Positions 36,738-52,047 are shown, counted from the first letter of the stretch. The stretch is 64,000 bases of DNA from a virus (IMGVR_UViG_3300044833_000182:1-64000); one strand, 5' to 3'. The notes: generated by a model not told the origin, from the letters alone. Translations and numbers: made by a program.

Positions 36738-36774
36738 TTGTTGCCTCACACCCTTTACCTCGGAGGATCGAGAG

Positions 36775-37346: not shown

Positions 37347-37476
37347 GAACACAGTGCGGCGCGTCCGCCCCCGGCGGCGTGTGGCCGGGGAGTAAGGAGT
37401 CCAAGCTATCACCGAACTTCACGCCGACAACCTGAGCAACCGCCTGCGGGAATGCTCCTTCTCGTTCGATCGGGCA

Positions 37477-37926: not shown

Positions 37927-37935
37927 GGAGTCAAC

Positions 37936-38286
37936 ATGCCGACTGAACCACCAGCCCCGCTGTCCAGCGCCGAGGGCGCCGTCCTCTACCTCTTGCGGCG
38001 CATCGCCCGCGATCCGGGCCTGCGCTGGCTAATGCTCCACACCCAGGCGTTCGGCAAGCTATGCGAGGCGGAAGCTCTTCGCACCGAAACGACGGTGGAC
38101 GCTGTCGAGAAGAAATACGGCGTGCCGTGCCAGGAGGGGAGCGTCGAACTGGTCCGGCTGCGGAAGGTCAAGGAGGCAGCGGAAACGCTGATCGAGTTTA
38201 TCGAGCAAGACGGCGGGAAACTACTCTTCAAGGAATCCAGTGTTGTGCTGGATCTGCGCGCCGCCCTGTCGAAAGACGGTGAGTGA
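37936..38286 (+). CDS. Hypothetical protein
   Basis: GAGGAG RBS. Confidence 0.6.
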   Translation: MPTEPPAPLSSAEGAVLYLLRRIARDPGLRWLMLHTQAFGKLCEAEALRTETTVDAVEKKYGVPCQEGSVELVRLRKVKEAAETLIEFIEQDGGKLLFKESSVVLDLRAALSKDGE

Positions 38287-38378
38287 CGGCCGGCAAGCAG
38301 CGTCAGGGCGAGAACGAAGCGGCGGCCCGCGCGGGCGCCGGTGTACGGGGAAGCGGAGACCTTTTAAGGAGAATCACG

Positions 38379-38816
38379 ATGGAGAACTGGCGGAAGGTGT
38401 TTCGCGACGGTCTGGCTCCCCTGCTCTCCGTGGAGCATTTGGAGGCTTTGAAAGAGGCGCTGGAGAGTGACGATCCTGCTCTGCTGCAAGGCTCAACAAT
38501 GATGCCTCCATTTTACCGATCTGAATGGTTGGTGGAAGGCGCATGCTTGCTGGCTTACCCATACGCGGCTGTCAATGGAGGTTTTCTGCACGACGACGAT
38601 CCCTCCGAACTCAACATTGAAGCGGCGCAGGCTGGCGACGTTGAGGCATTCTTCGCGCAAACGTGTTCTGGCATCGATCAACGGCTGGCGGACGCGGAAG
38701 AACCAACACCCCACCAACTCCTGCTGGAATGGTTTGACGAGACGCCGCGCGACGAGATGCGCATCAACCTCCTTCCTGAAATCGAGCGCGAACTGACGCG
38801 GCGCGGCGGTCTCTGA
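38379..38816 (+). CDS. Hypothetical protein
   Basis: AAGGAG RBS; MENWRKVFRDGLAP. Confidence 0.65.
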   Translation: MENWRKVFRDGLAPLLSVEHLEALKEALESDDPALLQGSTMMPPFYRSEWLVEGACLLAYPYAAVNGGFLHDDDPSELNIEAAQAGDVEAFFAQTCSGIDQRLADAEEPTPHQLLLEWFDETPRDEMRINLLPEIERELTRRGGL

Positions 38817-38844
38817 CTCCTGACTTCCCGGCCGGAGTCCACGG

Positions 38845-39120
38845 ATGGCGACGTATCCGATCACCGGCCCAGACGCTCAGATCCTTAACGCTGGAGCGGT
38901 ATGTACCTACCTCGGTTGCGAGTTGCGCACTCTCCGCCGCTGGATCGAGGCCGGCCGCTTTCCCCGGCCCCGGCGCGTCGGCCGAACGCGGTTCTGGACC
39001 GGGCAGGACATTGCCGCCTATCTGTCCCTTGAAGGCCGGTATGTCGTCGGCCCGCAGGAAACTGATGACGAGGAACCGCCGAAAAAAAGCAAAAAGAAGG
39101 GCGAAACGCCGCCCGGGTAA
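38845..39120 (+). CDS. AlpA/excisionase-like HTH protein
   Basis: VCTYLGCELRTLRRWIEAGRFPRPRRVGRTRFW. Confidence 0.8.
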   Translation: MATYPITGPDAQILNAGAVCTYLGCELRTLRRWIEAGRFPRPRRVGRTRFWTGQDIAAYLSLEGRYVVGPQETDDEEPPKKSKKKGETPPG

Positions 39121-39138
39121 AGGATTCTTTCGGTGTCA

Positions 39139-39188
39139 CTCGCGGCCACTGATGACCACTGGCGTACATCTCGCGGCCACTGATGACC
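39139..39188 (+). repeat. 19-bp exact direct repeat, 31-bp period
   Basis: CTCGCGGCCACTGATGACC at 39139 and 39170. Confidence 0.85.
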
Positions 39189-39227
39189 GGGCAAAGCCGA
39201 TGCCAAAAAATAGAGAAAATGTAGCTG

Positions 39228-39255
39228 TTGACAGCATGGAAATCGCGTGTAATCT
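39228..39255 (+). promoter_or_regulatory. Sigma70-type promoter
   Basis: TTGACA-16 bp-TAATCT with A-rich upstream tract. Confidence 0.55.
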
Positions 39256-39285
39256 TCTTGAGTCGCCTGCGAAAGGCCCTCGACC

Positions 39286-39594
39286 ATGACGAGCGAAACG
39301 CGGCTCATGTCCGCCTTGCACGACCTGCCCGCGGGCAACGCCGAGCCCGCCGCCAGCGCACCGCAACCGGCTGCGAAGGTGCTGTCTCCGATCAAACTCC
39401 CCTGCCCGTTGTGCGGAGAGGAAGACGCTGACATCAGCGTGCATCTGGCGAACCTGGGGAGCGGTGAAGAGTTCATGTGCGACGACTGCGGCGAGGACTT
39501 CAGCATCGCCGAGGTTCGCCGGTTCATCGCCCGATGGACGCCGATTTTGGATTGGTTGAGCGCCATTCCGACGACGCCGCCCGACGCCGAGTAA
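39286..39594 (+). CDS. Zinc-ribbon protein
   Basis: CPLCG...CDDCG. Confidence 0.65.
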   Translation: MTSETRLMSALHDLPAGNAEPAASAPQPAAKVLSPIKLPCPLCGEEDADISVHLANLGSGEEFMCDDCGEDFSIAEVRRFIARWTPILDWLSAIPTTPPDAE

Positions 39595-39631
39595 CGCCCC
39601 GCACCCCTTCGCCCCGACATGAGGCCACCAC

Positions 39632-39949
39632 ATGCTCACCCGCTCCCTCCGCACGCCGTACCCCCTGCCCACCGACGCGCCACCGCGCCGGCGCATCACG
39701 GAGGTTGAGGCCGCCGTCATGGTGTCGGCCGTGGGCGGCCTGGCGGACCTGGTGGCCGTGCGGAAGACGCTGGCGATGTTGCTCAACTGGGACCGCGAGC
39801 AGCAGGACCGCGAGATCGAGGCGGCGCGGCGCAGCGGCCGGGTCACGGGGACGGCGCGCGAGGGACGCAACGGTGTGACGGCCGAGCAGCGGGCGACGGA
39901 GACGGCGGACGGGTGCGGGTATCTGAGCATCCGCGAGGAGGGGGCATGA
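39632..39949 (+). CDS. Hypothetical protein
   Basis: Coupled to MTase gene. Confidence 0.55.
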   Translation: MLTRSLRTPYPLPTDAPPRRRITEVEAAVMVSAVGGLADLVAVRKTLAMLLNWDREQQDREIEAARRSGRVTGTAREGRNGVTAEQRATETADGCGYLSIREEGA

Positions 39950-41181
39950 TCGCAACCGCAAAGGACGTGCTGGAGGGACGGGCGGCGTGGGCGTGTGACC
40001 CGGCCGACAACCTCGTATGGCTGGCCAGCCTTCCTGCGAGCTGCTGTTCGCTTTCGGTCACATCCCCGCCATACGAAGGTCAGAGACTTTACGGAGCCGT
40101 CAAGTTCAAGCTCGTGGGTCAGGCGTGGGTGGACTGGATGATTCCGCGCGTCGTCGAGATGTGCCGGGTCGTCAACGGTCTGGTGTGTATCAACATGAGC
40201 GGTTGCGTCGAGGATCGGATGTATCACCCCGTCGTCGAGTGGTTGGTTGCCGACCTGACGCGGAATCATGGTCTGGTGTGCGGCCCCGCCCCCTACGTCT
40301 TTTTCCGCTACGGTATCCCCGGCTCGGGAGGGTCGGGAAAAATCGACCGCTACCACCGGCGGGATTGGGAACCGGTGTACGCCTTTGCCCGTCTGGAGAA
40401 CCTGCCGCTGAAGTGGACGGACGCGACGGCGATGGGGCATCCGCCGAAGTGGGCGCCGGGTGGGGAGATGAGCAATCGGCTGAAGAACGGCCAGCGCGTC
40501 GGCAAGTTCGGTGCGGGCGGAAGCAGCAACAGCAAGGGAGGTATGGGCCGTAAGAAGAACGGCGAAATGGAACCGACGCGCAACTCTTCCCTGGCGGAAA
40601 CTGTGATCGTTGGCGGCGAGACTCCCGGTCTGTTCGGCCCTGTCGAGGAACCGCCAGCCGATCCCTACGGCCACGACCGCGCGACTTCGGGCGGCAAGAG
40701 AGCGAACGGCGAGCGGAAACCGCCAACGAAGCACGTCACCCGTCGCCGTCACGGCGACGGGGAGCGCGACGACGGCCAGTATGAACCGCCCGTTTTGGCG
40801 AACCCCGGGAATGTGATCAAGGCGCTGTACAACGCCGAAGAAGTCCGCCAACTCTTTGACGACCTCGTGACGCAGAAGATCGAGCCTGGCGACGTGGTCC
40901 GTTGTCTCGTCGGCGGCGGTCTGATGGGGCATCCGTTGTGCCACCGCAATGAAGCCCCGTTTCCAGAAAGCCTCGTGGAGTTCTTCATCCGTTCCTACGC
41001 CGCTCCCGGCAGCATCGTCCTTGACGCCTTCTCCGGGAGTGGTACGACGGGCGCCGTCGCGGTGCGGGAGGGGCGGCGGTTCATCGGCGCGGACGTGCGG
41101 CCCGATCAGATCGAGGTTGCCCGGCAGCGGATTAGTGGCGAGACGCCGTCTCTCTTCGCCGCGCAGGAGCCCCCGCCCTGA
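39946..41181 (+). CDS. DNA amino-methyltransferase, beta class (SPPY, likely m4C)
   Basis: TSPPY, APFPESLVEFFI, VLDAFSGSGTTG. Confidence 0.9.
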   Translation: MIATAKDVLEGRAAWACDPADNLVWLASLPASCCSLSVTSPPYEGQRLYGAVKFKLVGQAWVDWMIPRVVEMCRVVNGLVCINMSGCVEDRMYHPVVEWLVADLTRNHGLVCGPAPYVFFRYGIPGSGGSGKIDRYHRRDWEPVYAFARLENLPLKWTDATAMGHPPKWAPGGEMSNRLKNGQRVGKFGAGGSSNSKGGMGRKKNGEMEPTRNSSLAETVIVGGETPGLFGPVEEPPADPYGHDRATSGGKRANGERKPPTKHVTRRRHGDGERDDGQYEPPVLANPGNVIKALYNAEEVRQLFDDLVTQKIEPGDVVRCLVGGGLMGHPLCHRNEAPFPESLVEFFIRSYAAPGSIVLDAFSGSGTTGAVAVREGRRFIGADVRPDQIEVARQRISGETPSLFAAQEPPP

Positions 41182-41182
41182 C

Positions 41183-41290
41183 GAACCACCCCCTCCGGCC
41201 GCGCCAGGCCCCGCTCGTTGCGGAATCAGCCTGGCCGCCGCGGTTCACGCCCGCGGACGCATCCCTTGCCGGCCGGGATGGGGAGTTTTC
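41183..41290 (+). ncRNA. Intergenic structured element with C(UCGUU)G hairpin, copy 1
   Basis: CCGC-TCGTT-GCGG at 41211-41223 inside GCCAGGC/GCCTGGC stem. Confidence 0.5.
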
Positions 41291-41318
41291 AGATCGCCCG
41301 CAACCGAAGGAGCAACCT

Positions 41319-41756
41319 ATGGGAACTCGCGCCGACGTATATCTCGGTCGCGGCGAGCAGGCTGAATGGCTCGGCAGTATCGCCTGGGACGGCGACCCTG
41401 ACGGCGTCCAGGCCGCGCACCGCACCTACGGCGAACACGGCCGCGCCATGCTGCGGGCGACCGACGAGAAGGCGTTCCGCGAGGCCGTCAAGGCGTTCCT
41501 CGCGGCGCGCGAGGACGACGCCACCCTCCCGGAGATGGGCTGGCCGTGGCCGTGGGAGAACAGCCGCACCACGGATTTCGCCTACGCCTTCGACGGCGGC
41601 AAGGTGTGGGCGTCCTGCTTCGGTTATGCGTGGTTCGATCCGCTGCTGCCGATGCCGGAAAGCGACGGGCCAAAGTCGGCCGTTTTCCCGGACATGACGC
41701 ATCGCCAGAAGGTGACGATGGGGCCGCGGTCGGGGCTGATCGTGCTGGGAATGTAG
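41319..41756 (+). CDS. Conserved phage protein
   Basis: MGTRADVY..WLGSIAWDG. Confidence 0.7.
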   Translation: MGTRADVYLGRGEQAEWLGSIAWDGDPDGVQAAHRTYGEHGRAMLRATDEKAFREAVKAFLAAREDDATLPEMGWPWPWENSRTTDFAYAFDGGKVWASCFGYAWFDPLLPMPESDGPKSAVFPDMTHRQKVTMGPRSGLIVLGM

Positions 41757-41757
41757 C

Positions 41758-41856
41758 GAACCATCCCGGGCCGCGCCGCCGCGCCGAGAGCGTCGGCAGC
41801 GTGACACGCCTTCCTGCCCCGGCTCGTTGCTGGCGGCGGGTGGGCGGCCCGGGGGA
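41758..41856 (+). ncRNA. Intergenic structured element with C(UCGUU)G hairpin, copy 2
   Basis: CCCGGGCCGC/GCGGCCCGGG outer stem; CCGGC-TCGTT-GCTGG at 41819-41833. Confidence 0.5.
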
Positions 41857-41878
41857 AGGAAACAAAGGAGAAGACGAC

Positions 41879-42148
41879 ATGGCATGCCCCACATGTAATG
41901 CGACGATGGCAAACCTTGGCCTGGAAAGCGAACGCGTCTTCCACTGCGCGACGTGCGGGACGGTCAAGAGCGTGGACGCGAACGGATTCGAGAACGTGAC
42001 CGTTCCCGCACTCGTCGGCCGGGTGCGCGACTGTCTCAAGCAGTCCATCGCCGAGCCGCGCAGTTTCTCCGTCGCCGCGTGGTACTTCAGGGCGGCGTGC
42101 GAGGCGGCAGGCCTCGAGGTGGACGCTGTGAAGCAGGATTCACCGTGA
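41879..42148 (+). CDS. Zinc-ribbon protein
   Basis: CPTC...CATCG. Confidence 0.6.
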   Translation: MACPTCNATMANLGLESERVFHCATCGTVKSVDANGFENVTVPALVGRVRDCLKQSIAEPRSFSVAAWYFRAACEAAGLEVDAVKQDSP

Positions 42149-42259
42149 GACCAGCCGGCCGGACACGCCTTTTCATGAGGCGTTGGGGCGCACCCCGCAG
42201 ACGACTGGGCAACGTCTGCGGGCGTCCGGCTGGTGGATAGACGCCCGGAGGAAGCAACG

Positions 42260-42511
42260 ATGCCTGAAGACCCCATCGACCAGATCGCCCGCGAGCTTGG
42301 CCTGGGAGCCACGAACCGTTACCCACACGGCAAGAACGCCCCCGATGACGAGGGCGAACTGAGGGCTGGCGTCACGCTTCAGGACGAGTTCATCATCCTG
42401 GCGTTCGGCAAGCCGGTGTCATGGGTAAGCATGACGGCGGCGAATGCCCGAGAGATAGCGGCGCTATTGCTGAAGAAGGCTGACGCGCTGGACGTCGCAC
42501 GGCGAAACTGA
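42260..42511 (+). CDS. Conserved phage protein
   Basis: LGATNRYPHGK..DDEGEL..FGKPVSW. Confidence 0.7.
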   Translation: MPEDPIDQIARELGLGATNRYPHGKNAPDDEGELRAGVTLQDEFIILAFGKPVSWVSMTAANAREIAALLLKKADALDVARRN

Positions 42512-42541
42512 TCGCCCTTCACCCAACCGAAAGGACACACC

Positions 42542-42997
42542 ATGACCCTGAACGAACAGCCGCCGCTCGACGCCGACCGCTGGGATGACGCCGCCTACCG
42601 CGACGAACTGCTGCTGCGCGTGCTCCCGGAGTGTCTCTGGGACGACGCGAGCGGAGACTACTCCACGCCAGAGGAGGCGAACAAGCGCGCCGAAGACTTC
42701 GTCGCGGAGGCCATGCGCCGCCGGGCGGCAAGGCGCAAGAAGCGGCAGACGGACGCGACCGGCGCAGACGACTCGCCCAGCTTCATCGGCGCGGCCATCC
42801 ACCGGATCGACGGCGAGGAGCGGCGGCGCCGCCGGGACGCGCGGCCGGACGCCGTGGCGGCGAGGCAGCAACGCCGCCACCCGTCATGGACGCCGCGACA
42901 AGGTCCGAAGCCATCTCCCTGTCCGGGCAGGAAGCGCTCGACGCGCTTCTCCGCGACCGGGAACGGCACAAGGCGATCCGTCGTCAGGAGCCGCTGA
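42542..42997 (+). CDS. Hypothetical protein
   Basis: AAGGA RBS. Confidence 0.5.
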   Translation: MTLNEQPPLDADRWDDAAYRDELLLRVLPECLWDDASGDYSTPEEANKRAEDFVAEAMRRRAARRKKRQTDATGADDSPSFIGAAIHRIDGEERRRRRDARPDAVAARQQRRHPSWTPRQGPKPSPCPGRKRSTRFSATGNGTRRSVVRSR

Positions 42998-43152
42998 ACA
43001 GCGAGCCCGAGCCGGACGGCCGGTGTGCGGCGGGCGAGTGCGAAGTGATCGAAGTGGTGGACCAGCGGGAAGAGGCGTTACAGTTCCGAATCGTCGGTGG
43101 GGGCGAGCCCGAGAATATCCCGCACCACTATGAGGCAGACTTGCGGGACTGA
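42886..43152 (+). CDS. Hypothetical acidic protein
   Basis: ATG 42886; overlaps previous ORF. Confidence 0.4.
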   Translation: MDAATRSEAISLSGQEALDALLRDRERHKAIRRQEPLNSEPEPDGRCAAGECEVIEVVDQREEALQFRIVGGGEPENIPHHYEADLRD

Positions 43153-43297
43153 GTCACGAGGAAGCGCTACCTGCGGCGTGCCACATTCGCGGTTCCTAGG
43201 TTATCGCGTCATAGGCGTCAGCAGGAACCCCCGGACGCCCGCCCATAACGGCGGGGCCGCGTCGAGAGGCGCGCCGTAGCGACGGTCGGGGGACTTT

Positions 43298-43409
43298 GCC
43301 CCTGTGCATGGTGCATTCGACGAACTACTGCCGGTCTGGGCGCTGGGGCCGAAACCCCGTGCGACCCCATTCCGGCAGCGTTGATCGGGTTCGATTCCCG
43401 GCCGGGGCC
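43298..43409 (+). ncRNA. tRNA-like RNA with extended arm
   Basis: Acceptor GCCCCTG/CCGGGGC, T-arm TCGGG-TTCGATT-CCCGG, long stem TCGACG..CTGCCGG/CCGGCAG-CGTTGA. Confidence 0.6.
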
Positions 43410-43435
43410 TGAACAGAACTACGGAGAAACCAGCT

Positions 43436-43978
43436 ATGGAACGCTCCCCACCCGACGCCCCCACGCTCTCCGACCTGGCCGGCCGCGCCCGCGAACTGGC
43501 CGACGCCCTCGCCGTGTCCCCGCCCTGCACGGAGGCGATAGCGGGGCGGGCGTCGTGCCTCTCTCTGAAGGAACAGGAGTGGCGGCGATTCCGAGACCTG
43601 CGCAACGTCCCCTCCCTGACGCTCTACCGCCGGTTCGGCGAGCACGACCTCTGCCAGCCGTGCCGCGCCTACTGGTTCGCCCGCCGCTGCGAGATGGTGG
43701 TGCAAGAGATGCTTGACGCCGCGCCGCCGCCAGAAGCGCCGGCCGTTGCGCCGCCCGCGTTCGACCCGGCAGCGTGGTTCCAGCAGACGCGGCCGGGGTT
43801 TCCCGTCGCCTGCTTGGGGGCGGTAATGGTTCTCCCCGCGATGACCGATTGCCCTCTCGGCTCCCTCGTCCCGCTGGCAGAGTGGCTCCTGGAGCAGCGG
43901 CCGGATTTAGAGGGGGCGATTCACACGGCCGTGCTGGAGCTGACGCGGAATGAGGATTTGAACGCGGCGGGGTGCTGA
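43436..43978 (+). CDS. Hypothetical protein
   Basis: GGAG RBS. Confidence 0.6.
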   Translation: MERSPPDAPTLSDLAGRARELADALAVSPPCTEAIAGRASCLSLKEQEWRRFRDLRNVPSLTLYRRFGEHDLCQPCRAYWFARRCEMVVQEMLDAAPPPEAPAVAPPAFDPAAWFQQTRPGFPVACLGAVMVLPAMTDCPLGSLVPLAEWLLEQRPDLEGAIHTAVLELTRNEDLNAAGC

Positions 43979-44046
43979 GGATGAGGGGATGCGAGGAGAT
44001 TGAAAGCAGACGAGAATTTGGGCGGATATAGCGGAAGGAGATCCAG

Positions 44047-44607
44047 ATGACGAAAAAGGCAAGTCCGAAAAAGGCGAGTCGCCGCGTAAGCGTGAGCGAC
44101 CGTGCCAGCGAAATCATTCAGAGGACGTGGGGGGATGTCCCCGTTCTCGATGCCACGGAGAATTTGCGCGTATTCATTCTTCCGGAAGACACGGTCGGCG
44201 CAGTCCGAAAAGATCCTGGATGCTGCGTCTTCGCGCGTGCATGCCAACGCACCTTTGGGGCAACAAAGGTTCTCTTTTTCCGCTCCGTTGCCTACGTCGA
44301 ACTTCCCGACGACGCGGGCAAGAAGCGGGTCGAGAGGTTTACCATGACCCCGGGCATGCGCAAACTCGTCGAGGCGTTCGATGCGGGGAAAAGCGTGATT
44401 CCCGAGGGTGGCTTCCTGCTGAAAGCACCTACTTACAGCAGGACCTTTGAACACTCCCGCGCCAAGAAAACCGCACAGCGGGAGCGGCAGAAGTTGCTCG
44501 GCAAGGCAGAACGAAAAGGCAACGCGGGCTCTGGCAGATACGAAGACGCTCCGCTCGTCGTTGATCTTTCTGTCCGTTCAGGTACGGGAGCCGTCCATTT
44601 CTCCTAG
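44047..44607 (+). CDS. Hypothetical basic protein
   Basis: AAGGAG RBS. Confidence 0.65.
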   Translation: MTKKASPKKASRRVSVSDRASEIIQRTWGDVPVLDATENLRVFILPEDTVGAVRKDPGCCVFARACQRTFGATKVLFFRSVAYVELPDDAGKKRVERFTMTPGMRKLVEAFDAGKSVIPEGGFLLKAPTYSRTFEHSRAKKTAQRERQKLLGKAERKGNAGSGRYEDAPLVVDLSVRSGTGAVHFS

Positions 44608-44649
44608 AAGGACGGTTCGCCCGGATGCTGAACACAGGAGACCGGCACG

Positions 44650-44832
44650 ATGCCCACACTCACCCGATGGACGCCCTTCGCGGCAGGCGTCTGCAAAAAG
44701 CTCAGGCGCTGGCTGCTGTTCGCAGCCGGCATGCTGCTGGGGACTTTGGAAGCCACCCTCTGGCTAGGCGAGTACGAGTTGCTCGCGGCGGCGCTGATGT
44801 TGATGGAAGCGGCGGTGGGAGAGACCTACTAA
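44650..44832 (+). CDS. Small hydrophobic protein
   Basis: AGGAG RBS. Confidence 0.5.
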   Translation: MPTLTRWTPFAAGVCKKLRRWLLFAAGMLLGTLEATLWLGEYELLAAALMLMEAAVGETY

Positions 44833-44853
44833 CGCCCTGAAGAGAAAACGCTG

Positions 44854-45432
44854 ATGCTCGCCGCCGAAGAAGACGCCCTGATCCGCCTCCACTGGCCTCT
44901 GGCCCGCCTCCTGGCTGGCAAGCACGGTCGCGGCCGTCTGCGCTCCGACGACGGCGAGCGCCTCAGCGACGCCCTGCTTGGCCTGCTTCGCGCCGTCCGC
45001 ACTCACCGCCCGCACTGGTTGCACCTGCACGCCTGGATCGAACGAAAGGTTAGAGGCGCTCTCCTCGACGGCGACCGCGAGCGGAGCGTGATGTCACGGT
45101 CACTGACGAAAGAAGTTGTCGCCGGCCGTCGCGAGGCCCTTCACCCTGCGACGAGACAGGAATTGCCTGATGGGATTTTCAGTCTGCCTGACTGCCGTGA
45201 GGAGGCTCCCGATGCTTCCCTCGTGCGCCGGGACCTGCTTGGCCGCCTGCTGCGCGACCTCAGCGTCAGCGAGCGCTCGACGGTTGAGCGCTATTACCTC
45301 GACGGTCTGACCCACGCGCAGATTGCAGCGGCGGACAGTCTCTCTCGGACGGGCGTCTTGCGGCGTCTCACTGATCTGATGCAGCAGTTGCGCGAGAAGG
45401 CCGCGCTGCTGGCCGAACGGGAGAAACGCTGA
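44854..45432 (+). CDS. Sigma-70 family factor (FliA/WhiG-like)
   Basis: SDALLGLLRAV..WIERKVRGALLD; LSVSERSTVERYYLDGLTHAQIA. Confidence 0.75.
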   Translation: MLAAEEDALIRLHWPLARLLAGKHGRGRLRSDDGERLSDALLGLLRAVRTHRPHWLHLHAWIERKVRGALLDGDRERSVMSRSLTKEVVAGRREALHPATRQELPDGIFSLPDCREEAPDASLVRRDLLGRLLRDLSVSERSTVERYYLDGLTHAQIAAADSLSRTGVLRRLTDLMQQLREKAALLAEREKR

Positions 45433-46049
45433 TGCCCGCCGCCGACTTGGCCCGCCGTTCCACCTGCCGCCCGGGACTGACGAGCCGCAGCTACCGCCGG
45501 GAGCACCCGTCGAAGGCGCTGGCCCCGGCCAGCGATTGCTGCCTGCTGGACGCGGCCCGACAGGAGAGGATCGCCCAGCACGCCGCCCGCCGCCGAGAGG
45601 GAATTGCCGTGACGCGACAATCGATCCTCGCCGAAGTGTCTGCCGAACGCGACCGTCAGGACCGCGACTACGGCGCCAGGCATGATGACGGCCTTCAGCG
45701 AAACGACTGGTCTGCCATCGCCGCCCGTCATCTCGGGCTCGCTTCCAGCGACGGCGCGGAGACGGACGCCGACCGCTGGCGTCGCCAACTCATCCGCCTC
45801 GCAGCCGTTGCCGTGGCCGCCATCGAGTCAGCCGACCGCAAGGGCCAATCTCACCCGGAACTGGCGGCACGATTGCAGGCGCTCGCCGATCAGCACTGCG
45901 AGCCCGTGTTGCTGCTGGCGGACGGTGCGCCCGGGATGGAGTACCGGTCGCGCACTCCCTACGGCGTGTTGCTGAGTCAGGCGAGCGGGTGGGAGAAGGC
46001 AAATCAGATGAGGACGATTGAGCCAACGAAAATGGAGGGCGTCTCGTGA
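45432..46049 (+). CDS. MazG-like helical protein (alternative GTG start 45609)
   Basis: EVSAERDRQD..W..RRQLIRLAAVAVAAIES. Confidence 0.5.
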   Translation: MPAADLARRSTCRPGLTSRSYRREHPSKALAPASDCCLLDAARQERIAQHAARRREGIAVTRQSILAEVSAERDRQDRDYGARHDDGLQRNDWSAIAARHLGLASSDGAETDADRWRRQLIRLAAVAVAAIESADRKGQSHPELAARLQALADQHCEPVLLLADGAPGMEYRSRTPYGVLLSQASGWEKANQMRTIEPTKMEGVS

Positions 46050-46570
46050 AACGCTGCCTTATTTACAGAGGCTTGCCGGGCGCCGGAAAAAGTACGGCGG
46101 TTCGCTGGCGTCGAGCATCCCTCGCCTGGGACGGCGTCGAGTTCGTGGTTTGCTCTTCAGACGATCACTTCATCGGGCCCGACGGCGTCTATCGCTTCGC
46201 GCTCGCCGAGTTGCCTGATGCTCACGCCGCATGTCAGCAGAAATGCCTGGACGCAATGGCCCGGGGCGTCAGCGTGGTCCTGATCGACAACACCAACGTC
46301 ACCGCGAGGGAGTGCAGGCCATACGTCGATCTCGCTCAGCGGTACGGCTACACCGTGGAGTTCGTCGAGCCCAGCACGCCGTGGGCGTTCGACCTGACGG
46401 AGTTGAGCAACCGCAACACGCACGGCGTTCCCTTGGCGACCCTCCAGCGGATGCTGTCGCGATGGGTTCCCGACATGACCGTGGAGAAGGCGCTGACGGC
46501 CGACCCCGCGCCTGGGAAGCCGACCAACGATGAACGATGCGCCGATCTCGCCCGGGAGGTGCGGAAATGA
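46046..46570 (+). CDS. P-loop kinase (AAA_33, N4BP2-like)
   Basis: RGLPGAGKST, SSDDHF, IDNTN, RNTHGVP. Confidence 0.85.
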   Translation: MKRCLIYRGLPGAGKSTAVRWRRASLAWDGVEFVVCSSDDHFIGPDGVYRFALAELPDAHAACQQKCLDAMARGVSVVLIDNTNVTARECRPYVDLAQRYGYTVEFVEPSTPWAFDLTELSNRNTHGVPLATLQRMLSRWVPDMTVEKALTADPAPGKPTNDERCADLAREVRK

Positions 46571-46857
46571 GCAAATCCCTCAACCTCGACCGCCTCTCCC
46601 CTGACGACCTGCGCCGTCTGGTTGTCGTCCTGATCAGCCGCCTCGACCAGGCCCGCATGGGCGAACGCGACGCCGGACGCAGTGCGACCAGGGCGACGCT
46701 GCAAGCCGCGGCAGCACTGGCAAACGAGCGGCGAGCGGTGCAGGAGACGATCGAAGCGGTTCGCGGCGAGCGGGACGCTCTGCGCTGGGCGGCGGAGGCG
46801 GAGCGGGAGGTGCGGGGGCTGCGATGGATGCTGAAGCAAGAGAGGAGGAGAAAGTGA
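46567..46857 (+). CDS. Hypothetical coiled-coil protein
   Basis: ATGA overlap. Confidence 0.55.
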   Translation: MSKSLNLDRLSPDDLRRLVVVLISRLDQARMGERDAGRSATRATLQAAAALANERRAVQETIEAVRGERDALRWAAEAEREVRGLRWMLKQERRRK

Positions 46858-47075
46858 GCTACAACCGCGAGAGCCTGATTCCGTTCTCAACCTGGAAACA
46901 CGTCGTGACCGGGTCGTTTTACACCGTCTTCGGCATTGCCTCCTGCTCCACGAACGGGCCGCGCGAAGGAGTGGAGGAATCCGTGGTCTACGTCAGCCAC
47001 ACATACGATGGGTTGCTCTACCGCGAACTCAGCGAATTCACCGATGGCAGATTTGAGCCGGTTACGCCCACCTGA
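46854..47075 (+). CDS. DUF1653-like protein
   Basis: WKH..G..Y.V.GIA..VVY..R.LSEF..RF. Confidence 0.65.
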   Translation: MSYNRESLIPFSTWKHVVTGSFYTVFGIASCSTNGPREGVEESVVYVSHTYDGLLYRELSEFTDGRFEPVTPT

Positions 47076-47077
47076 AG

Positions 47078-47152
47078 CCGCGGCCGGCGGCGGGTGTGCG
47101 GGCGCTCGCTCGTTGCGGACAACATCGCTGGGCTCGCGCCCGATGGCCGGCC
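47078..47152 (+). ncRNA. Intergenic structured element with C(UCGUU)G hairpin, copy 3
   Basis: CGGCCGGC/GCCGGCCG outer stem; TCGC-TCGTT-GCGG at 47106-47118. Confidence 0.5.
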
Positions 47153-47174
47153 GTGAACGGATCTGGAGGGGAAA

Positions 47175-47780
47175 ATGATCAGCTTGATTGTTGCCATGAC
47201 CAAACGCGGCGTCATCGGGGACAGCGGCCGAATCCCCTGGCACTGTCCGCCGGACCTGAAGCGGTTCCGTGATCTCACGATGGAAAAGGCTGTCGTCTTC
47301 GGTCGCAAGACGTGGGAGAGCATCAGCAAGCCGCTTCCCGGACGGCGCGTCTGGGTCCTCACGCATCGACCGGACCTGTACGAGACGGCAACGGCCGACG
47401 ACCCGGATTACTTCGGACATCTATGGGAGCAATTGGTGCATCTGGGCGCTGGTTGGCCGGAGGTGCTGATCTGCGGCGGCGCGTCGGTGTACCGGCAGGC
47501 GCTCGCTCTGACCACGCAACTCGGGGGAATCGACTGGAAGAAAGCGCCGCCGATGGTGACGCGGATGTATCTCACGGAGTTGGACGCCGACGTTCCCGGT
47601 AGCGTCTTCTTCCCGCCGTGGGACCGCGGCGTGTGGCGAGTGATCTCGTCGGAGCGGTGTGAGGGCGACGGGCCGAACGCGATGCCGCACACGTTCAGCG
47701 TCCTGGAACGTTCCGGGAGAGCGGTTCCCCCGGGCTCTTCGCCCGCAACCTCCTTGTCAGAGGGCGCGCCTATGGGCTGA
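47175..47780 (+). CDS. folA: Dihydrofolate reductase
   Basis: MISLIVAM..VIG..IPW..DLKRFRDLT..GRKTWESI.KPLPGR, ICGGASVY, YLT. Confidence 0.9.
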   Translation: MISLIVAMTKRGVIGDSGRIPWHCPPDLKRFRDLTMEKAVVFGRKTWESISKPLPGRRVWVLTHRPDLYETATADDPDYFGHLWEQLVHLGAGWPEVLICGGASVYRQALALTTQLGGIDWKKAPPMVTRMYLTELDADVPGSVFFPPWDRGVWRVISSERCEGDGPNAMPHTFSVLERSGRAVPPGSSPATSLSEGAPMG

Positions 47781-47868
47781 CGTGATAGTGAAGGCAGGTT
47801 GGGGCGCGGCGGCGTCTGCTGGCAATCGAACGCCGCCGCGCGTTTCGCCCGGGAAAGGAGCATCGACG

Positions 47869-48081
47869 ATGGAAGACAACAAAGATCCTCAGGGGTGTTT
47901 CTACTGCTGCCTCGCCGCGGTGCATGTCTGCTCTGGGTCCGGCGGCTGCGGCAAGCCGATCTGCGTCGTTCACAGCCAGCCTTACGATGGGGGCGGCGGC
48001 TGGCGGTGCCAGACGATTCTGACGCCAGCAGCTGAACTGGCGGTCACGCCCGCCAGCGAGGATGACGGTTCGCCTGACTGA
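47869..48081 (+). CDS. Small Cys-rich protein
   Basis: AAGGAG RBS. Confidence 0.5.
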   Translation: MEDNKDPQGCFYCCLAAVHVCSGSGGCGKPICVVHSQPYDGGGGWRCQTILTPAAELAVTPASEDDGSPD

Positions 48082-48094
48082 GAGAGGAGACGCG

Positions 48095-48286
48095 ATGAAG
48101 GCATACACCTGTACGCAAGCCGAGCCCTGTCCGGAGAAGCGCGCCAAGGCGGAGACTCCCGCGGGGCATCTGTTCATCGTGAACCATCCCGACGCCGCGA
48201 AAATGGAAGTCATGGAAACGGACGGCAAGGGCGCAGAACACAAGCGCATGGCGAATGTGTGTCCCCACTGCCGGGAAATCTGGTGA
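48095..48286 (+). CDS. Small zinc-binding protein
   Basis: GAGGAG RBS; CPHC. Confidence 0.5.
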   Translation: MKAYTCTQAEPCPEKRAKAETPAGHLFIVNHPDAAKMEVMETDGKGAEHKRMANVCPHCREIW

Positions 48287-48452
48287 GGAGCGACCCCATG
48301 AAGAAGCACATCTTGCACTTCGCCCAGCTCCGCCACCGCGGCGAGCGCATCCACCCCCGGCACCGGCGGGATCGGGCGTTGTGGCGGGTGGTGCTGCGGG
48401 TGGTGCTGCGGGCGGTGGCGCCGCTGGTACGGCTACGGAAGGAGGAACAATC

Positions 48453-48731
48453 ATGGGCATGAACCCTGAACAGCGAGCAACGGTGTACGCGGACAAGATC
48501 GCCCAATCCTTCGGGATGGACAACAAGGACCGCAAGGAGGTGTATCTGCTGTTCCTCGAAGCACTCAAGGCGCAACAGGCGGACGCAATGCAGCCGCTGG
48601 TAACGATCCGCGACATTGCCCGCGAAGCGCCCGAAGGCGAACACGGCAGCGCGGACGAGGTTGTGGCCCGGTTGGGGGAGATTGCCCGCGACGCCCTGCG
48701 GCAGACGCTGGATCTGGAGGGGGACGCCTGA
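48453..48731 (+). CDS. Hypothetical protein
   Basis: AAGGAGG RBS. Confidence 0.55.
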   Translation: MGMNPEQRATVYADKIAQSFGMDNKDRKEVYLLFLEALKAQQADAMQPLVTIRDIAREAPEGEHGSADEVVARLGEIARDALRQTLDLEGDA

Positions 48732-49144
48732 TGATGACCCAGAACGATTGGGACCGCCTACAAACCATGATCCGAGAGGAGTTGGCGCGCGACGGCAAAC
48801 TGCGGGTGGACGTGGACGTTCTCTCCGCCCTCATCGGCGAGAAGCTCGCCCCCGTCGTCGCCGGCGCCGTGGCCGTCATGCAGGAAATGCGCGAGCGTGA
48901 CCGGAAGGCCGCAGGACACCGCGCCGCCCTGGAGCGAATCAGACTCCATGCCAACATCGGCGAACCATACTCCGCTGATGTCGCCCGGGAGGCGCTCGCC
49001 GGCACCAGCGAGAAACCAGCCGACCCCTGCCGCACCGCCCTGGAGCGCATTGCCCGTGAGTGCGGGGCGAGCCCGCAAGAGGCTACCGGCGTGCTGGCGG
49101 CGCGGATTGCAGGGGAAGCGCTGAAGCAGGAGGAAACGACGTGA
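48731..49144 (+). CDS. Hypothetical protein with internal repeat
   Basis: R.ALERI...A..A(L) twice. Confidence 0.55.
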   Translation: MMTQNDWDRLQTMIREELARDGKLRVDVDVLSALIGEKLAPVVAGAVAVMQEMRERDRKAAGHRAALERIRLHANIGEPYSADVAREALAGTSEKPADPCRTALERIARECGASPQEATGVLAARIAGEALKQEETT

Positions 49145-49845
49145 TCCGCACCGTGGGAGACGAGTTGCTGCAAGCGATCCGCGAAGAACCTGGCGTCGAT
49201 GCGCCGCGGATGATCTACGCCGACTGGCTGGAAGAGAACGGCGGGGACGCCGACCGCGCCGCCTTCATCCGCCTGTGCTGCATCAAGGGACGGTCCATGC
49301 TGCCCGTTGCGGCCGGGAAGATGCTCGACGCGCACGCGGACAAGTGGCTGCTGGAGCCGCTGGAGAAGCTGACCGGGCTGCCGATGATGGTTGGCTGGAG
49401 GAAGGGGCGCAGGTTGGCCTTGCGCGTCACAGGCGGGGGCAGCGTGAACGCCTGGGCAATCCTGAACTACCGTCGCGGGTTCGTCGCTGACGCGACGTTC
49501 TACACAATCAAGCAGGCGTACTACCTCGCCGGGGCGGTTATGGCGATCGAGCCAACGGCCGTCTGCCGCTTCGCCCATTCGCAAGCATTACCGTGCGGTT
49601 CATGGCATATCGACTGCCGGACGTTCATGGAGCCGCCGCCACTCGTCCCGCGCCCGTGGGAGCGCTTTTACGCGGAGTGGTTCGACCTGCTTGCCGGGTT
49701 CGAGGGGACTTCGGACGGCCACAAGCACTACATCCGCCAGTCGCGCGAGTCCCCGCAGCAGTGGCGCGACCGGGCGCATGGCGCCGCCGACGCGGCCTTG
49801 ACGGCGCTGGCACGGCAGAAGGCGGCGATGCTGTCGGCCGATTGA
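49141..49845 (+). CDS. TIGR02996 domain protein
   Basis: LLQAIREEPGVDAPRMIYADWLEENG..RAAFIRL, YRRGFV. Confidence 0.85.
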   Translation: MIRTVGDELLQAIREEPGVDAPRMIYADWLEENGGDADRAAFIRLCCIKGRSMLPVAAGKMLDAHADKWLLEPLEKLTGLPMMVGWRKGRRLALRVTGGGSVNAWAILNYRRGFVADATFYTIKQAYYLAGAVMAIEPTAVCRFAHSQALPCGSWHIDCRTFMEPPPLVPRPWERFYAEWFDLLAGFEGTSDGHKHYIRQSRESPQQWRDRAHGAADAALTALARQKAAMLSAD

Positions 49846-49927
49846 ACCACCCTTCCCCGGCGTGCGGCTTGTCGCCGCCGTCCCGCACTCGTTGGGCGCT
49901 TGCGCTGGGCCGGGAGAGGGGGACTTT
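49844..49927 (+). ncRNA. Intergenic structured element with C(UCGUU)G hairpin, copy 4
   Basis: Starts GAACCACCC like copy 1; CGCAC-TCGTT-GGGCG at 49884-49898. Confidence 0.45.
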
Positions 49928-49948
49928 CGCCAGTGAAGGAGGAACGCG

Positions 49949-50434
49949 ATGGCTGAGGAGAACGAATCGCCCAATGAAAGACCTCCGTTGTTCGTTGAGC
50001 CAACGACCAGGCAGGAGGCCGAAAAAAGGATTGTCACGCTCAACGGCGAGAAGGCCAGCATCGAGGGGCAACTCTCAAACATGGGGAAGAGGCATCCGGA
50101 CGGGCAGATGATGACCGGCGTTGAGTACCATCAGTGGCGACATCGCGCCATCTGCGCGGTGAAGTGGAAGACAAGCGAGGCGCTCTTCCTGAAAAGGTGG
50201 CTAGCGGCTCATCCGCCGGCAAGCGAGGGCGTCGGTGGGAGCCTGAAGCGCCCTATGGGAAACATCATGAAAACGCTCGGCAGGCAGGTGGCGGCGATGG
50301 AGAAAATACGCCTGGCCGCGATGGAATTGCTGGAAGGTCTGCCCGCCGATCAGACCGAAGAGGTTGAATTGCTGACGGACAACCTCGCGGCGGCGCTCGA
50401 TGCGTTTGAACAAACAACCGCGGAAGATTCCTGA
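49949..50434 (+). CDS. Hypothetical protein
   Basis: AAGGAGG RBS. Confidence 0.6.
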   Translation: MAEENESPNERPPLFVEPTTRQEAEKRIVTLNGEKASIEGQLSNMGKRHPDGQMMTGVEYHQWRHRAICAVKWKTSEALFLKRWLAAHPPASEGVGGSLKRPMGNIMKTLGRQVAAMEKIRLAAMELLEGLPADQTEEVELLTDNLAAALDAFEQTTAEDS

Positions 50435-50448
50435 TAGGAGCAACGCCG

Positions 50449-50838
50449 ATGCAATCCGGAACCATCCACCTGCCCCGCCCCTGCCGCAAGCGCGTCGCCT
50501 CCCTCGACGCGCTCTTCCCGGACGACGCGCGGCTCGGCGACTTCCTCAGCGGCGACAACCGCCCGGACTGCACCAGCGCCGCGGGCCGCGACCGGATGGA
50601 CCGGCTCGATGAGTTGCTGGCCCTGCTGACGGCGCGACAGCGGGAGATTCTCCTGATGAGCGTCGAGTGCGGCAACGTGGAGGCGGCCCGGCGGCTGGGG
50701 GTGGTGGTCGGCAGCGTTGCGATGACGAAAGCCCTTTGCTTGCTGAAGTTTCAGCGGGCGATAGCCGGACAGCGGGTGTGCGCGTGGCGGGGGCGGCCGG
50801 AGAAGGTCAAGCGGCGGCCGGGGGAGAGGGCGGGGTGA
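50449..50838 (+). CDS. Sigma-70 region 3/4-like protein
   Basis: VASLDA..RLGDFL; LTARQREIL..EAARRLGV. Confidence 0.65.
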   Translation: MQSGTIHLPRPCRKRVASLDALFPDDARLGDFLSGDNRPDCTSAAGRDRMDRLDELLALLTARQREILLMSVECGNVEAARRLGVVVGSVAMTKALCLLKFQRAIAGQRVCAWRGRPEKVKRRPGERAG

Positions 50839-50893
50839 ACCGCGGACCGCGGTGGAGGAGCGACGAGGGGCGGGGGAGGGGAGGGATGATGGG

Positions 50894-51175
50894 TTACTTC
50901 TCCGGCCTCCTCAGCCTATCCATTACCGCCTGATAATCCCGGGTGATTGCTGGACGGTTGATGGAATCGAGGTAGTCGGTGAGTTTTAGGCGCTTACCGC
51001 CCGGCGCCTTGGTGTGAGCGCAAACGATCCGGGCTTGCTCGATCAGTTCGACCGCAAGACGGACGGTCGCAGTAGGAGCCTGGTAGGGTTCCGGCTCCGG
51101 AGGAGGATCAGGCGCGGGAGGGGAAGAAGGTGTCTTCTTTGCCACGGCAGGGTCCAGTAATGCCAGGGTCGTCAC
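50894..51175 (-). CDS. Small repressor-like protein 2 (ribbon-helix-helix-like)
   Basis: TVRLAVELIEQARIVC..KRLKLTDYLD..RP..RDY; paralog of 35578-35847. Confidence 0.6.
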   Translation of the reverse strand: MTTLALLDPAVAKKTPSSPPAPDPPPEPEPYQAPTATVRLAVELIEQARIVCAHTKAPGGKRLKLTDYLDSINRPAITRDYQAVMDRLRRPEK

Positions 51176-51287
51176 AAACTACTCCTGTTTCAAGGGTAAC
51201 AGTGTCGATGGCACACGACCAGACGCCGTACCATTGTACGCGGAAATCCCGTTCCAGTGACACTTGTAAATTACGGTTTCTGTGTCA

Positions 51288-51316
51288 TTGACACTTTGTG
51301 TCAGTAGCACTATACT
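51288..51316 (+). promoter_or_regulatory. Sigma70-type promoter of early operon 2 overlapped by TGACAC/GTGTCA motifs
   Basis: TTGACA-17 bp-TATACT. Confidence 0.8.
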
Positions 51317-51364
51317 ACGTTCTGACAAACAACGCAACCCCATCGCCCACGAGGAACTGTCGCA

Positions 51365-51571
51365 ATGAGGTACTACCTGGAGATCGAAGAGAACAACGAC
51401 CGCCTCCCGGTCGGCAACCTCCGCGGTTACACCACGCTCGACGAAGCGAAGAAGGAAGCCGAGAAGTACGTTGACGACACTCTCCCCGCCAACCGCGTTC
51501 GCGTCTTTGCCCACGTCGCGACCGCGTATCTTCGCGGCGACGGCGAGGCCGCCGTTCAGGACGAGAAGTGA
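51365..51571 (+). CDS. Hypothetical protein
   Basis: First ORF after promoter. Confidence 0.6.
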   Translation: MRYYLEIEENNDRLPVGNLRGYTTLDEAKKEAEKYVDDTLPANRVRVFAHVATAYLRGDGEAAVQDEK

Positions 51572-51607
51572 ACCCCATCGCTCCTTCACCCCACGAGGTC
51601 ACCTACC

Positions 51608-51790
51608 ATGACTCGCCGCGCAGCAAGACTCCTGAAGCGGTTTGAGAACGCCGCCCGCGAACTCTCCTGGCTCGGCGGGCGCGATCCGGACGCCCACGAC
51701 GAGATCCAGAGTGAGTACAAGGCGGCGCGGAAGGCGCTGATGGAGTACATCGGAGAACTGGAGAAGGCCACGGAAGGGGTGAGGCAGTGA
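51608..51790 (+). CDS. Hypothetical protein
   Basis: GAGG RBS. Confidence 0.6.
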   Translation: MTRRAARLLKRFENAARELSWLGGRDPDAHDEIQSEYKAARKALMEYIGELEKATEGVRQ

Positions 51791-52047
51791 AAGCATGTGA
51801 CCGCTGCCTGGCAGCAAATGCCTTCAAGACATCCATCCTGTTCGGCAAACACGACGGATCACGGAAGAGCGGCGCGCGCCGGATTCTGAGCGTGAACTGT
51901 GAGTTGTGCGACCAGTGTATCACCGATTTGCTTCACGAGTTCGGCCGGTTGAAGGCGGCCTTCCTCAAGGCCGGCATCAGCCCGGACGGCCCAGCGAAAA
52001 ACATGAAAGAACCCATTTCGCCCGCAACAATGGAGACCGCATCATGA
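51787..52047 (+). CDS. Zinc-binding protein
   Basis: CDRC...LCDQC. Confidence 0.55.
   Translation: MKACDRCLAANAFKTSILFGKHDGSRKSGARRILSVNCELCDQCITDLLHEFGRLKAAFLKAGISPDGPAKNMKEPISPATMETAS

Follow-up and report, generated by a model that had tools for sequence, protein, structure and literature searches.

The early genes of an uncultured phage are separated at several points by spacers rich in guanine and cytosine (GC) that are predicted to fold into stem-loops. The window analyzed here is a stretch of 64,000 nucleotides (nt), IMGVR_UViG_3300044833_000182:1-64000, which represents the first 64 kilobases (kb) of a 96,108-nt IMG/VR virus record. Four of the spacers, termed E1 to E4, contain the heptamer CTCGTTG and had been proposed, in an original prediction made from the DNA alone, to form a family of structured RNAs with a shared C(UCGUU)G pentaloop. 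Our preferred reading, to which we assign a probability of about 45%, is that E1 to E4 belong to a heterogeneous set of approximately ten stem-loop spacers between cistrons, by which a long early messenger RNA (mRNA) is punctuated. We infer both the action of the spacers at the RNA level and their punctuating role. The C(UCGUU)G hairpin may be a small module shared among them, which is clear in E1 and E2, possible in E3, and doubtful in E4. Structured spacers are a familiar kind of element, and the finding is a modest lead.

Punctuation of this kind could act in several ways. A stable stem-loop located 1–7 nt past a stop codon would shield the upstream message from 3′ exonucleases. The stem-loops could also offer double-stranded sites for endonucleolytic processing, or they may cause RNA polymerase to pause or to terminate weakly, in a leaky manner. 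Protection, processing, or attenuation would then result in unequal expression of neighboring genes. The spacers are not copies of one element, and have in common a set of short modules, namely a post-stop start, palindromic outer stems, and a small hairpin.

The host of the phage is probably a planctomycete. A confirmed match to the TIGR02996 domain (NCBIfam model name rpt_mate_G_obs) in one of the early proteins supports a Gemmata-like planctomycete as the likely host. Almost nothing is known about gene regulation in Planctomycetota phages. Should the spacers prove to be signals for processing or stability, they would reveal how expression levels are set in very long operons without internal promoters.

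Anatomy of the Four Spacers

The four elements occupy non-coding gaps at 41182–41318, 41757–41878, 47076–47174, and 49846–49948, which are preceded by the stop codons TGA, TAG, TGA, and TGA, respectively. Within a block of co-directional genes, each gap follows immediately on the stop codon and ends, on the coding strand, in a Shine-Dalgarno sequence and ATG. The folded element within each gap is 72–106 nt long, has a GC content of 72–74%, and is closed by a long-range stem. The minimum-free-energy outer stems span 41183–41288, 41761–41859, 47079–47155, and 49850–49921. The original prediction had described four GC-rich elements that run from a stop codon to a ribosome-binding site (RBS) and are closed by a long outer stem, and both their positions and this build are confirmed. 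The CTCGTTG copies are found at 41214–41220 in E1, 41823–41829 in E2, 47109–47115 in E3, and 49888–49894 in E4, all on the + strand.

E1 (41183–41288, + strand) is a branched GC-rich spacer that follows a DNA methylase gene (stop codon at 41179–41181). In its outer stem, GAAC/CCC/TCCGGCCG pairs with CGGCCGGG/GGG/GTTT. Its inner hairpin, CCAGGCC..GCCTGG, carries the tip CCGC-TCGTT-GCGG, and a second hairpin is formed by CGCGG-TTCACGC-CCGCG. The CTCGTTG of E1 is part of a 13-mer, CGCTCGTTGCGGA, that is common to E3, and of a 14-mer, CCCGCTCGTTGCGG, that is common to hairpins in two distantly related viral genomes (G001 and G004, described below). Immediately 3′ of E1 are AGTTTTC, the RBS GAAGGAG, and an ATG at 41319.

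E2 (41761–41859, + strand) is a branched spacer after a gene encoding a protein of 145 amino acids (aa), whose stop codon is at 41754–41756. Its outer stem is a perfect helix of 10 base pairs (bp), CCCGGGCCGC/GCGGCCCGGG, a length reached in 1% of shuffled sequences. It contains a 5′ hairpin and a long irregular 3′ hairpin, the latter with the tip CCGGC-TCGTT-GCTGG, in which one pair is G-U. The RBS AAAGGAG and an ATG at 41879 follow 3′ of E2.

E3 (47079–47155, + strand) is one long irregular hairpin between an 83-aa gene (stop codon at 47073–47075) and the dihydrofolate reductase (DHFR) gene (ATG at 47175). Its arms are built on CGGCCGGC/GCCGGCCG, it does not begin with GAACCA, and its outer stem has a P value of 0.055 relative to shuffled sequences. 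Two alternative tips can be drawn, GTTG-CGGA-CAAC, which is favored, and TCGC-TCGTT-GCGG. E4 (49850–49921, + strand) follows the gene for the TIGR02996-domain protein, whose TGA at 49843–49845 overlaps GAACCA. Its outer stem, CCCTTCCCCGGC/GCCGGGAGAGGGG, is followed by GACTTTC, the RBS GAAGGAGG, and an ATG at 49949. The hairpin proposed for E4, CGCAC-TCGTT-GGGCG, contains an A-G mismatch and is absent from the predicted fold. In terms of helix length, the irregular E3 hairpin comprises about 29 pairs and the TCGTT arm in E2 about 16, and E1 and E4 branch from outer stems of 12–15 bp.

Proposed Intercistronic Punctuation

E1 to E4 are part of a larger class of structured spacers, which are located between the cistrons of long operons with all genes on one strand. 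Of the 54 gaps in the genome that measure 55 nt or more, about 10 are strongly structured GC-rich spacers. Strong folds without TCGTT are found at 42149 (z −4.0 relative to dinucleotide shuffles), 94132 (z −3.7), 80671 (z −4.8), and 93436 (z −2.2). The first of these, at 42150–42236 on the + strand, neighbors E2 and has an outer stem, ACCAGCCGG/CCGGCTGGT, and two inner hairpins. This same build in a spacer that contains no TCGTT indicates that the class extends beyond E1 to E4. The spacers also differ considerably from one another. E1 to E4 align poorly (60% mean column identity, 16 invariant columns), and all-against-all BLAST of the gaps finds only short shared segments, those of the four elements being 7–25 nt long. 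The outer stems are built from the palindromes CGGCCG, GCCGGC, and CCCGGG, and CGGCCG and GCCGGC are 2.2- to 2.3-fold over-represented in gaps.

Two further sets of repeats were observed among the gaps. The spacers at genome positions 79992–80062 and 80671–80734 (L089:15992-16062 and 16671-16734) share 83% identity over 58 nt and are clear paralogues, with CCCCAC(A/C)CCC right after the stop codon and ..GCAGACGCAAGGAG at the end before the next start. In addition, a 28-nt sequence, AGTGCRGCSCGTCCGCCCCCGGCGGCGT, is present at 37089–37116 and 37353–37380 with 93% identity, in two successive gaps close to where the early operon begins. A CCGCC-CCC-GGCGG hairpin is part of this repeat, which, with E = 1e-7 among gaps, is statistically stronger than the TCGTT motif.

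Several features of E1 to E4 are consistent with punctuation of the early mRNA. All four reach from a stop codon to an RBS, and single accessory genes, namely the 145-aa gene, a zinc-ribbon gene, and the DHFR gene, are bracketed by spacers. Short runs of uridine (U) occur 3′ of E1 (AGUUUU) and E4 (ACUUU). E2 and E3 are predicted to form irregular helices of about 20 bp or longer, which is the kind used by RNase III. In idealized form, the substrate of Escherichia coli RNase III measures 22 bp, and the early polycistronic precursor of phage T7, about 7000 nt long, is punctuated by five signals of this type (PMC3867540). Through G-U pairs, the sense strands of E2 and E3 are predicted to be about 10 kcal/mol more stable than the opposite strands. 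Relative to dinucleotide shuffles, the z-scores are −2.7 for E1, −3.2 for E2, −1.4 for E3, and −0.3 for E4, so that only E1 and E2 are predicted to be clearly more structured than shuffled sequence.

The same stem-loops could be read as factor-independent terminators or attenuators of a high-GC type, with a strong hairpin and little U-tract, which were perhaps acquired with moron-like genes. A strong GC-rich stem does stand directly past each stop codon, A(G/C)UUU is found 3′ of E1, E4, and the G004 hairpin, and a simple hairpin of 12 bp with GUUUC after it is found past the DHFR gene, at 47804–47845. However, when the region 35500–52000 was scanned for short GC-rich hairpins with a loop of 3–8 nt and a U-tract (at least 5 T in 8) within 2 nt, none of the four elements passed, and the 9 terminator-like sites found compare with 12.5 expected from shuffles. 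Moreover, the closing stems span 70–100 nt of branched RNA, a kinetically unfavorable arrangement for termination. A U-run is absent from E2 and E3, and E1 and E4 have only 3–4 U after a long-range stem. A U-tract is reportedly required by mycobacterial RNA polymerase, which also counts against a U-poor terminator. Such a terminator function is considered quite improbable. Elsewhere in the phage, a further post-gene hairpin without a U-tract, the perfect 10-bp GTTGAAGCGG-CCCA-CCGCTTCAAC, is found in the window at 10526–10591, directly after the major capsid gene.

Some observations weigh against punctuation itself. Besides the absence of all four elements from the terminator scan, the stability of E3 and E4 is no better than that of shuffled sequences of like GC content, and the strand preference in folding is inconsistent, as E1 folds better on the minus strand and E4 folds equally well on both. 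The post-stop sequence GAACCAYCC, described in the next section, is far too specific for a generic stabilizer and is left unexplained by punctuation. Finally, two distant relatives have the same hairpin sequence in non-coding spacers, a hint of a role more specific than punctuation of a generic kind.

The Post-Stop Module

In three elements, GAACCAYCC stands directly after the stop codon, and this 9-mer is found 7 times in the window compared to 1.03 expected. Three such placements straight after stop codons cannot be chance. The earlier statement that three of the elements begin with GAACCA is correct, at 41183, 41758, and 49844. The longer 5′ module, (CG)AACCAYCCC..GGCCGCGCC, covers 41183–41205 in E1 and 41758–41778 in E2, and is found in a looser form at 49844–49868 in E4, in each case on the + strand. 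E1 and E2, which flank the 145-aa gene, start with nearly one sequence of about 22 nt. A fifth spacer, located at genome positions 93436–93454 and outside the window, agrees with E2 at 18 of 19 nt at its post-stop end (94.7% identity, E = 4e-4).

It is conceivable, though improbable, that the elements act at the DNA level, either as junctions for the exchange of gene cassettes or as palindromic mobile or host repeats after stop codons, similar to repetitive extragenic palindromic (REP) sequences or miniature inverted-repeat transposable elements. As noted above, single accessory genes are bracketed by spacers, and homologues of the 145-aa gene are found in many phyla. The start shared by E1 and E2 recurs 52 kb away at 93436, the outer stems resemble terminal inverted repeats, and further short repeats are found at gene boundaries of the genome. 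Against this, the elements vary in both their bodies and their inverted repeats, which sets them apart from copies of a single mobile element, the attC cores RYYYAAC and GTTRRRY are absent, and the only recombinase seen is an ordinary tyrosine integrase next to attP. Searches of GenBank phages, plasmids, and IMG/VR revealed no similar element, and in IMG/VR a scan for the 5′ module gave 15 matches, most of them in long open frames.

The Proposed Shared Pentaloop Hairpin

A more specific, and rather unlikely, function for the spacers is that the C(UCGUU)G hairpin, with the core CGCUCGUUGCGGA, is a cis-acting RNA signal bound sequence-specifically by a phage or host protein. The signal would be repeated four times in the early operon, would control processing, read-through, or translation, and would be conserved in a loose clade of planctomycete-type phages.

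The distribution of CTCGTTG gives a mixed picture. The window has 12 copies compared to 11.6 expected, and this lack of enrichment counts against a shared pentaloop beyond chance. Gaps hold 4 of the 6 +-strand copies of the genome, so the placement stands out, yet other heptamers are equally gap-enriched: 293 heptamers are present in at least four gaps, and two others match or exceed the gap-to-coding count ratio of CTCGTTG. On the other side, the four copies are all on the sense strand and within 8.7 kb of one operon. Among the 20 genome copies on both strands, only the intergenic copies of E1 to E3 are flanked by at least 4 consecutive pairs, that is, 3 of 4 intergenic copies compared to 0 of 16 others (Fisher calculation, about 0.004).

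Folding supports the loop in part of the set. The probability of a C-G-closed TCGTT pentaloop in partition-function folding is 0.999 in E1, 0.999 in E2, 0.042 in E3, and 0.001 in E4. It had been stated earlier that each element has a hairpin with a TCGTT loop. The string and the quoted stems are indeed correct in all four, but the loop is predicted only in E1 and E2. In addition, an A/T-rich pentaloop common to at least three simple hairpins is seen in 15% of dinucleotide-shuffled gap sets, and the hairpin is found at variable places within the elements and at variable distances (50–99 nt) from the start codon that follows. No candidate binding protein for the hairpin was identified.

The stems were compared in four to six sequences, a set too small for judging covariation. 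In the 5-bp helix, 85–87% of the cells are paired compared to 66% in shuffles, 6 of 500 of which reach the observed value, and sliding the partner strand drops the paired cells to 30–65%. The hairpins of E2 and E3 keep their pairing through two wobble pairs, and these favor a single-stranded reading, as RNA or single-stranded DNA, over a double-stranded palindrome. Double changes are found at two pairs, each in one sequence, and 23–30 of 500 shuffles equal this, so that formal covariation is thin. The first two stem pairs are the same in E1 to E3, and exact 13-mers link unrelated gaps about 5 times genome-wide.

These results alter the earlier argument. Its description of stems that differ but still pair largely holds with respect to pairing, but the differences were overstated, since a 13-mer is common to E1 and E3 and the stem, too, is mostly constant. 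Its conclusion of selection on structure, drawn from a constant loop and varying stems, is not supported, because the stems are mostly one sequence, covariation is thin, and the loop is found in two of the four folds. There is only weak evidence that the elements represent an RNA family under selection in which the loop is constant, and the finding is a lead and not yet a discovery. The family claim is unproven, being currently based on a 7-nt string in four sequences and on four to six short sequences overall.

It was also considered that GCUCGUUG may be a boxA-like loading site for NusB/NusE, in which case an antitermination complex would be renewed at successive spacers of the operon. The string resembles the E. 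coli boxA, UGCUCUUUAACA (PMC13753749, PMC5725501), in its first four letters and UU. In total, about 6 of 11 consensus positions match, and the conserved U5 and A-rich tail, which are kept even in Bacillus subtilis (AUGAUCUUUGAAA), are missing. An Aquifex boxA reads GGCUCCUUGGCA. Furthermore, boxA is read as single-stranded RNA, whereas part of GCUCGUUG is paired in a stem. The only YTCTTTRA of the window is located at 40852, within the methylase gene. A boxA function is very improbable.

Known Families and Distant Relatives

Rfam 15 gave no match across the 64-kb window at gathering thresholds, and at E up to 10 the region 36000–51500 gave 7 weak matches, none of which overlaps an element. 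BLASTN of E1, E2, and E4 against GenBank phages and PLSDB plasmids returned chance-level matches only. The earlier remark that the elements belong to no recognized family is therefore borne out by Rfam, with nothing meaningful in these phage and plasmid collections.

No close relative of the phage was found in the collections searched (IMG/VR, JGI metagenomes, and GTDB genomes). IMG/VR matches of the methylase, 145-aa, DHFR, TIGR02996, and portal proteins were at best 41–53% identical and non-syntenic, or were absent. The best identity in JGI metagenomes was 62%, and a protein scan of GTDB genomes gave matches in many phyla, none of them planctomycete. A 75%-identical homologue of the 145-aa protein is present on a 4.9-kb Logan contig. 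None of the matching loci that were examined has a TCGTT motif at an equivalent position; in L048-L050, a seeming 6-bp TCGTT hairpin is found upstream of the homologue but is part of an open reading frame of 72 aa.

Two matches in distant relatives bear on the hairpin. A covariance model of the 19-nt hairpin, made from the four elements, was searched over 242 kb comprising the phage genome and two planctomycete-type contigs. It found the four training copies, then one outlier at 21 bits (E = 0.045), with the next match at 15.4 bits. The outlier, GTCCCGCTCGTTGCGGGTC, is in non-coding DNA of G001 (IMGVR_UViG_3300044511_000090), which has in common with the phage a methylase (49% identity) and a TIGR02996 segment. 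A scan of IMG/VR for the 14-mer CCCGCTCGTTGCGG gave at least 120 matches. Of the 80 examined, 74 are in long open frames and 6 are non-coding, one of them in G004 (IMGVR_UViG_3300050821_006637). G004 shares with the phage an HK97 capsid protein (34% identity over 445 aa) and a prohead protease (41%). In G004, the same 15-mer forms the tip of a 44-nt stem-loop, CACTCCCGG..CCGGGAGTG, located between a stop codon and an RBS, with AGTTTG on its 3′ side. This build resembles that of E1 (..CCGGGATGGGGAGTTTT) and E4 (..CCGGGAGAGGGGGACTTT).

CCCGC-TCGTT-GCGG is found in non-coding spacers of two distant relatives, with one copy in each and in unlike genomic contexts. A stricter three-part pattern in IMG/VR matched G004 and two coding sequences, which is about the chance expectation, and no GC-rich spacers like E1 to E4 were found in G001 or in G002, another planctomycete-type phage. 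Because the stems in G001 and G004 equal the E1 stem, covariation is not increased. The two matches are suggestive but not significant, being two events of roughly p = 0.05 each, and they keep the hypothesis of a specific signal alive without establishing it. We consider it rather unlikely that CCCGC-UCGUU-GCGG(A), of 13–15 nt, with four copies in the early operon and a single copy in each of the two distant relatives, is a conserved cis-acting RNA signal of an undescribed clade of planctomycete phages that is read by a dedicated phage or host protein and controls processing or read-through where genes meet. If this were true, the hairpin and the post-stop AACCAYCCC module would together constitute a novel type of modular element for intercistronic control. 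Were the hairpin a genuine binding site for a protein, and shared with distant relatives, it would also provide a handle on an RNA-binding regulator and a marker for the phage group.

The surroundings of the G001 hairpin (56385–56510; L087:16385-16510) have features of their own. The TCGTT hairpin lies about 20 nt downstream of GGAAC-N16-CGTC, which resembles a promoter for an extracytoplasmic function (ECF) sigma factor, and a canonical terminator, CGCCCGGATTGG..CCAATCCGGGCG TTTTT, is found about 40 nt downstream of the hairpin. This region could be a small RNA gene of about 110 nt.

Genomic Context and Other Sequence Features

The virus record has a CheckV completeness of 89% and a GC content of about 64%, and its + strand holds nearly all of the genes, among which are an HK97-type capsid and a tyrosine integrase. 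A rightward block of small genes extends from a sigma-70-like promoter at 35971–35999 to a second sigma-70-like promoter at 51288–51316. The early operon that contains E1 to E4 starts at the first of these promoters and is about 15 kb long.

On the + strand, this operon encodes the DNA methylase (39946–41181), which matches Pfam N6_N4_Mtase; the 145-aa protein (41319–41756), a widespread phage protein with homologues in phages and genomes across many phyla; DHFR (47175–47780), identified by its domain match; and the TIGR02996-domain protein (49141–49845). The genes for the zinc-ribbon protein and for an ECF-type sigma factor at 44854–45432 (TIGR02937, 50.8 bits compared to a cut-off of 42.9) are inside the same early block. 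The window also encodes a tyrosine recombinase at 31197–32525, which adjoins attP and is 9 kb from the elements.

Further repeats and motifs are present elsewhere. A perfect 31-nt inverted repeat at genome positions 77255–77285 and 78455–78485 (L089 ~13255-13285 and ~14455-14485) flanks a minus-strand gene at 77281–78228, an arrangement suggestive of a segment that was inserted or can invert. An exact direct repeat of 19 nt (..CGCGGCCACTGATGACC..) is found at window positions 39142–39191, in an AT-richer gap at 39121–39285, just upstream of a promoter-like string, TTGACA-N17-TAATCT. Canonical T-arm strings (GGTTCGAGTCC and similar) occur at window positions 31054–31067, in the gaps at 42998–43435, and at genome positions 71482–71669, where ARAGORN calls no transfer RNA (tRNA). 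CTCGAG is strongly avoided in coding DNA genome-wide (4 copies compared to about 29 expected), and six copies are found in gaps (compare window positions 34398–34590).

Comparison with Known Systems

Several known kinds of element were considered and were rejected, set aside, or not supported. The ECF sigma factor of the phage prompted a comparison with ECF promoters (GAAC at −35, CGTT at −10), but the spacing in the elements is 29, 63, and 42 nt rather than 16–18 nt, E3 has no GAAC, and no common −35 element is found 16–18 nt upstream of CGTT. For tRNA-like punctuation by these four elements, ARAGORN found no tRNA in the window, no acceptor stem precedes ACCA, and the second hairpin of E1, read as a T-arm (5-bp stem, loop TTCACGC), is without A58. 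Mimicry of clustered regularly interspaced short palindromic repeats (CRISPR), an idea raised by PMC10651486, was set aside, as the copies share 7–13 nt rather than a 28- to 37-nt repeat and have no Rfam CRISPR-DR match. Sequestration of the Shine-Dalgarno sequence or translational coupling is not supported, as the real Shine-Dalgarno sites are outside the stems in all four elements, despite C-rich 5′ arms that resemble anti-Shine-Dalgarno sequences and G-rich 3′ arms. Stop-codon read-through, a selenocysteine insertion sequence, and ribosome bypassing were rejected since each downstream gene has its own RBS and a start that agrees with its homologues, and a G-quadruplex in the 3′ arms was rejected since each arm has at most three G3 runs.

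Integron attC sites are imperfect palindromes of 57–141 nt that follow each cassette open reading frame and have little conserved beyond their ends, and in this respect they resemble the spacers. The elements, however, lie in a phage operon, and no integron integrase is found. Their 5′ ends, GACGAAC, AGCGAAC, and ATTGAAC, with none in E3, bear a loose resemblance to RYYYAAC through the AAC of the 5′ motif, and GTTRRRY is found at no 3′ end. The tyrosine recombinase scores far below the Xer and integron-integrase cut-offs. An attC-type reading of the folded single-stranded DNA site for cassette recombination that the original prediction had offered as one explanation fails at both core sites.

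In phage lambda, a nut site comprises a boxA and a boxB pentaloop hairpin that is bound by the N protein. The likeness to the spacers lies in a small early-transcript hairpin with five loop nucleotides and, for the spacers, a proposed protein partner. The lambda boxB has a GNRA-like loop (GAAAA or GAAGA), occurs once per early operon near the promoter, and is paired with a boxA, whose consensus is GYUCUUUAANA-like (PMC5725501). The elements differ in having a UCGUU loop and four copies between genes over 9 kb, with no boxA. A boxB- or nut-type reading, also suggested earlier, thus fails on the loop type in all four elements and on the missing boxA. The small early proteins have no informative Pfam or PHROG matches, and no N-like, arginine-rich antiterminator was identified among them, although no search aimed at one was made.

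Intercistronic stabilizing hairpins, such as those of the Rhodobacter puf operon and the REP sequences of E. coli malEFG, are GC-rich stem-loops right after a cistron that are expected to block 3′ exonucleases. The spacers are similar in being stem-loops directly past a cistron in a high-GC polycistronic operon, where segmental stability would be expected. REP sequences, however, are high-copy conserved host repeats, whereas the elements are few and heterogeneous and have a specific post-stop motif. Copies of REP sequences or bacterial interspersed mosaic elements are alike over the whole palindrome, and the four elements share only short segments.

The T7 early RNase III signals differ from E1 to E4 in that they are single, mutually similar hairpins with a characteristic internal loop, whereas E1 and E2 are branched and the four elements have only short modules in common. 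The two systems are alike in that several structured elements lie between the genes of a long early transcript on the sense strand. A T7-type site has about two turns (roughly 20–22 bp) of coaxial helix, often with an internal loop, and irregular helices of this order may also be formed by some of the spacers. In T7, the 3′ hairpin that remains after cleavage stabilizes the upstream message. The five RNase III signals of the T7 early precursor (PMC3867540) are the nearest documented counterpart of the spacers described here.

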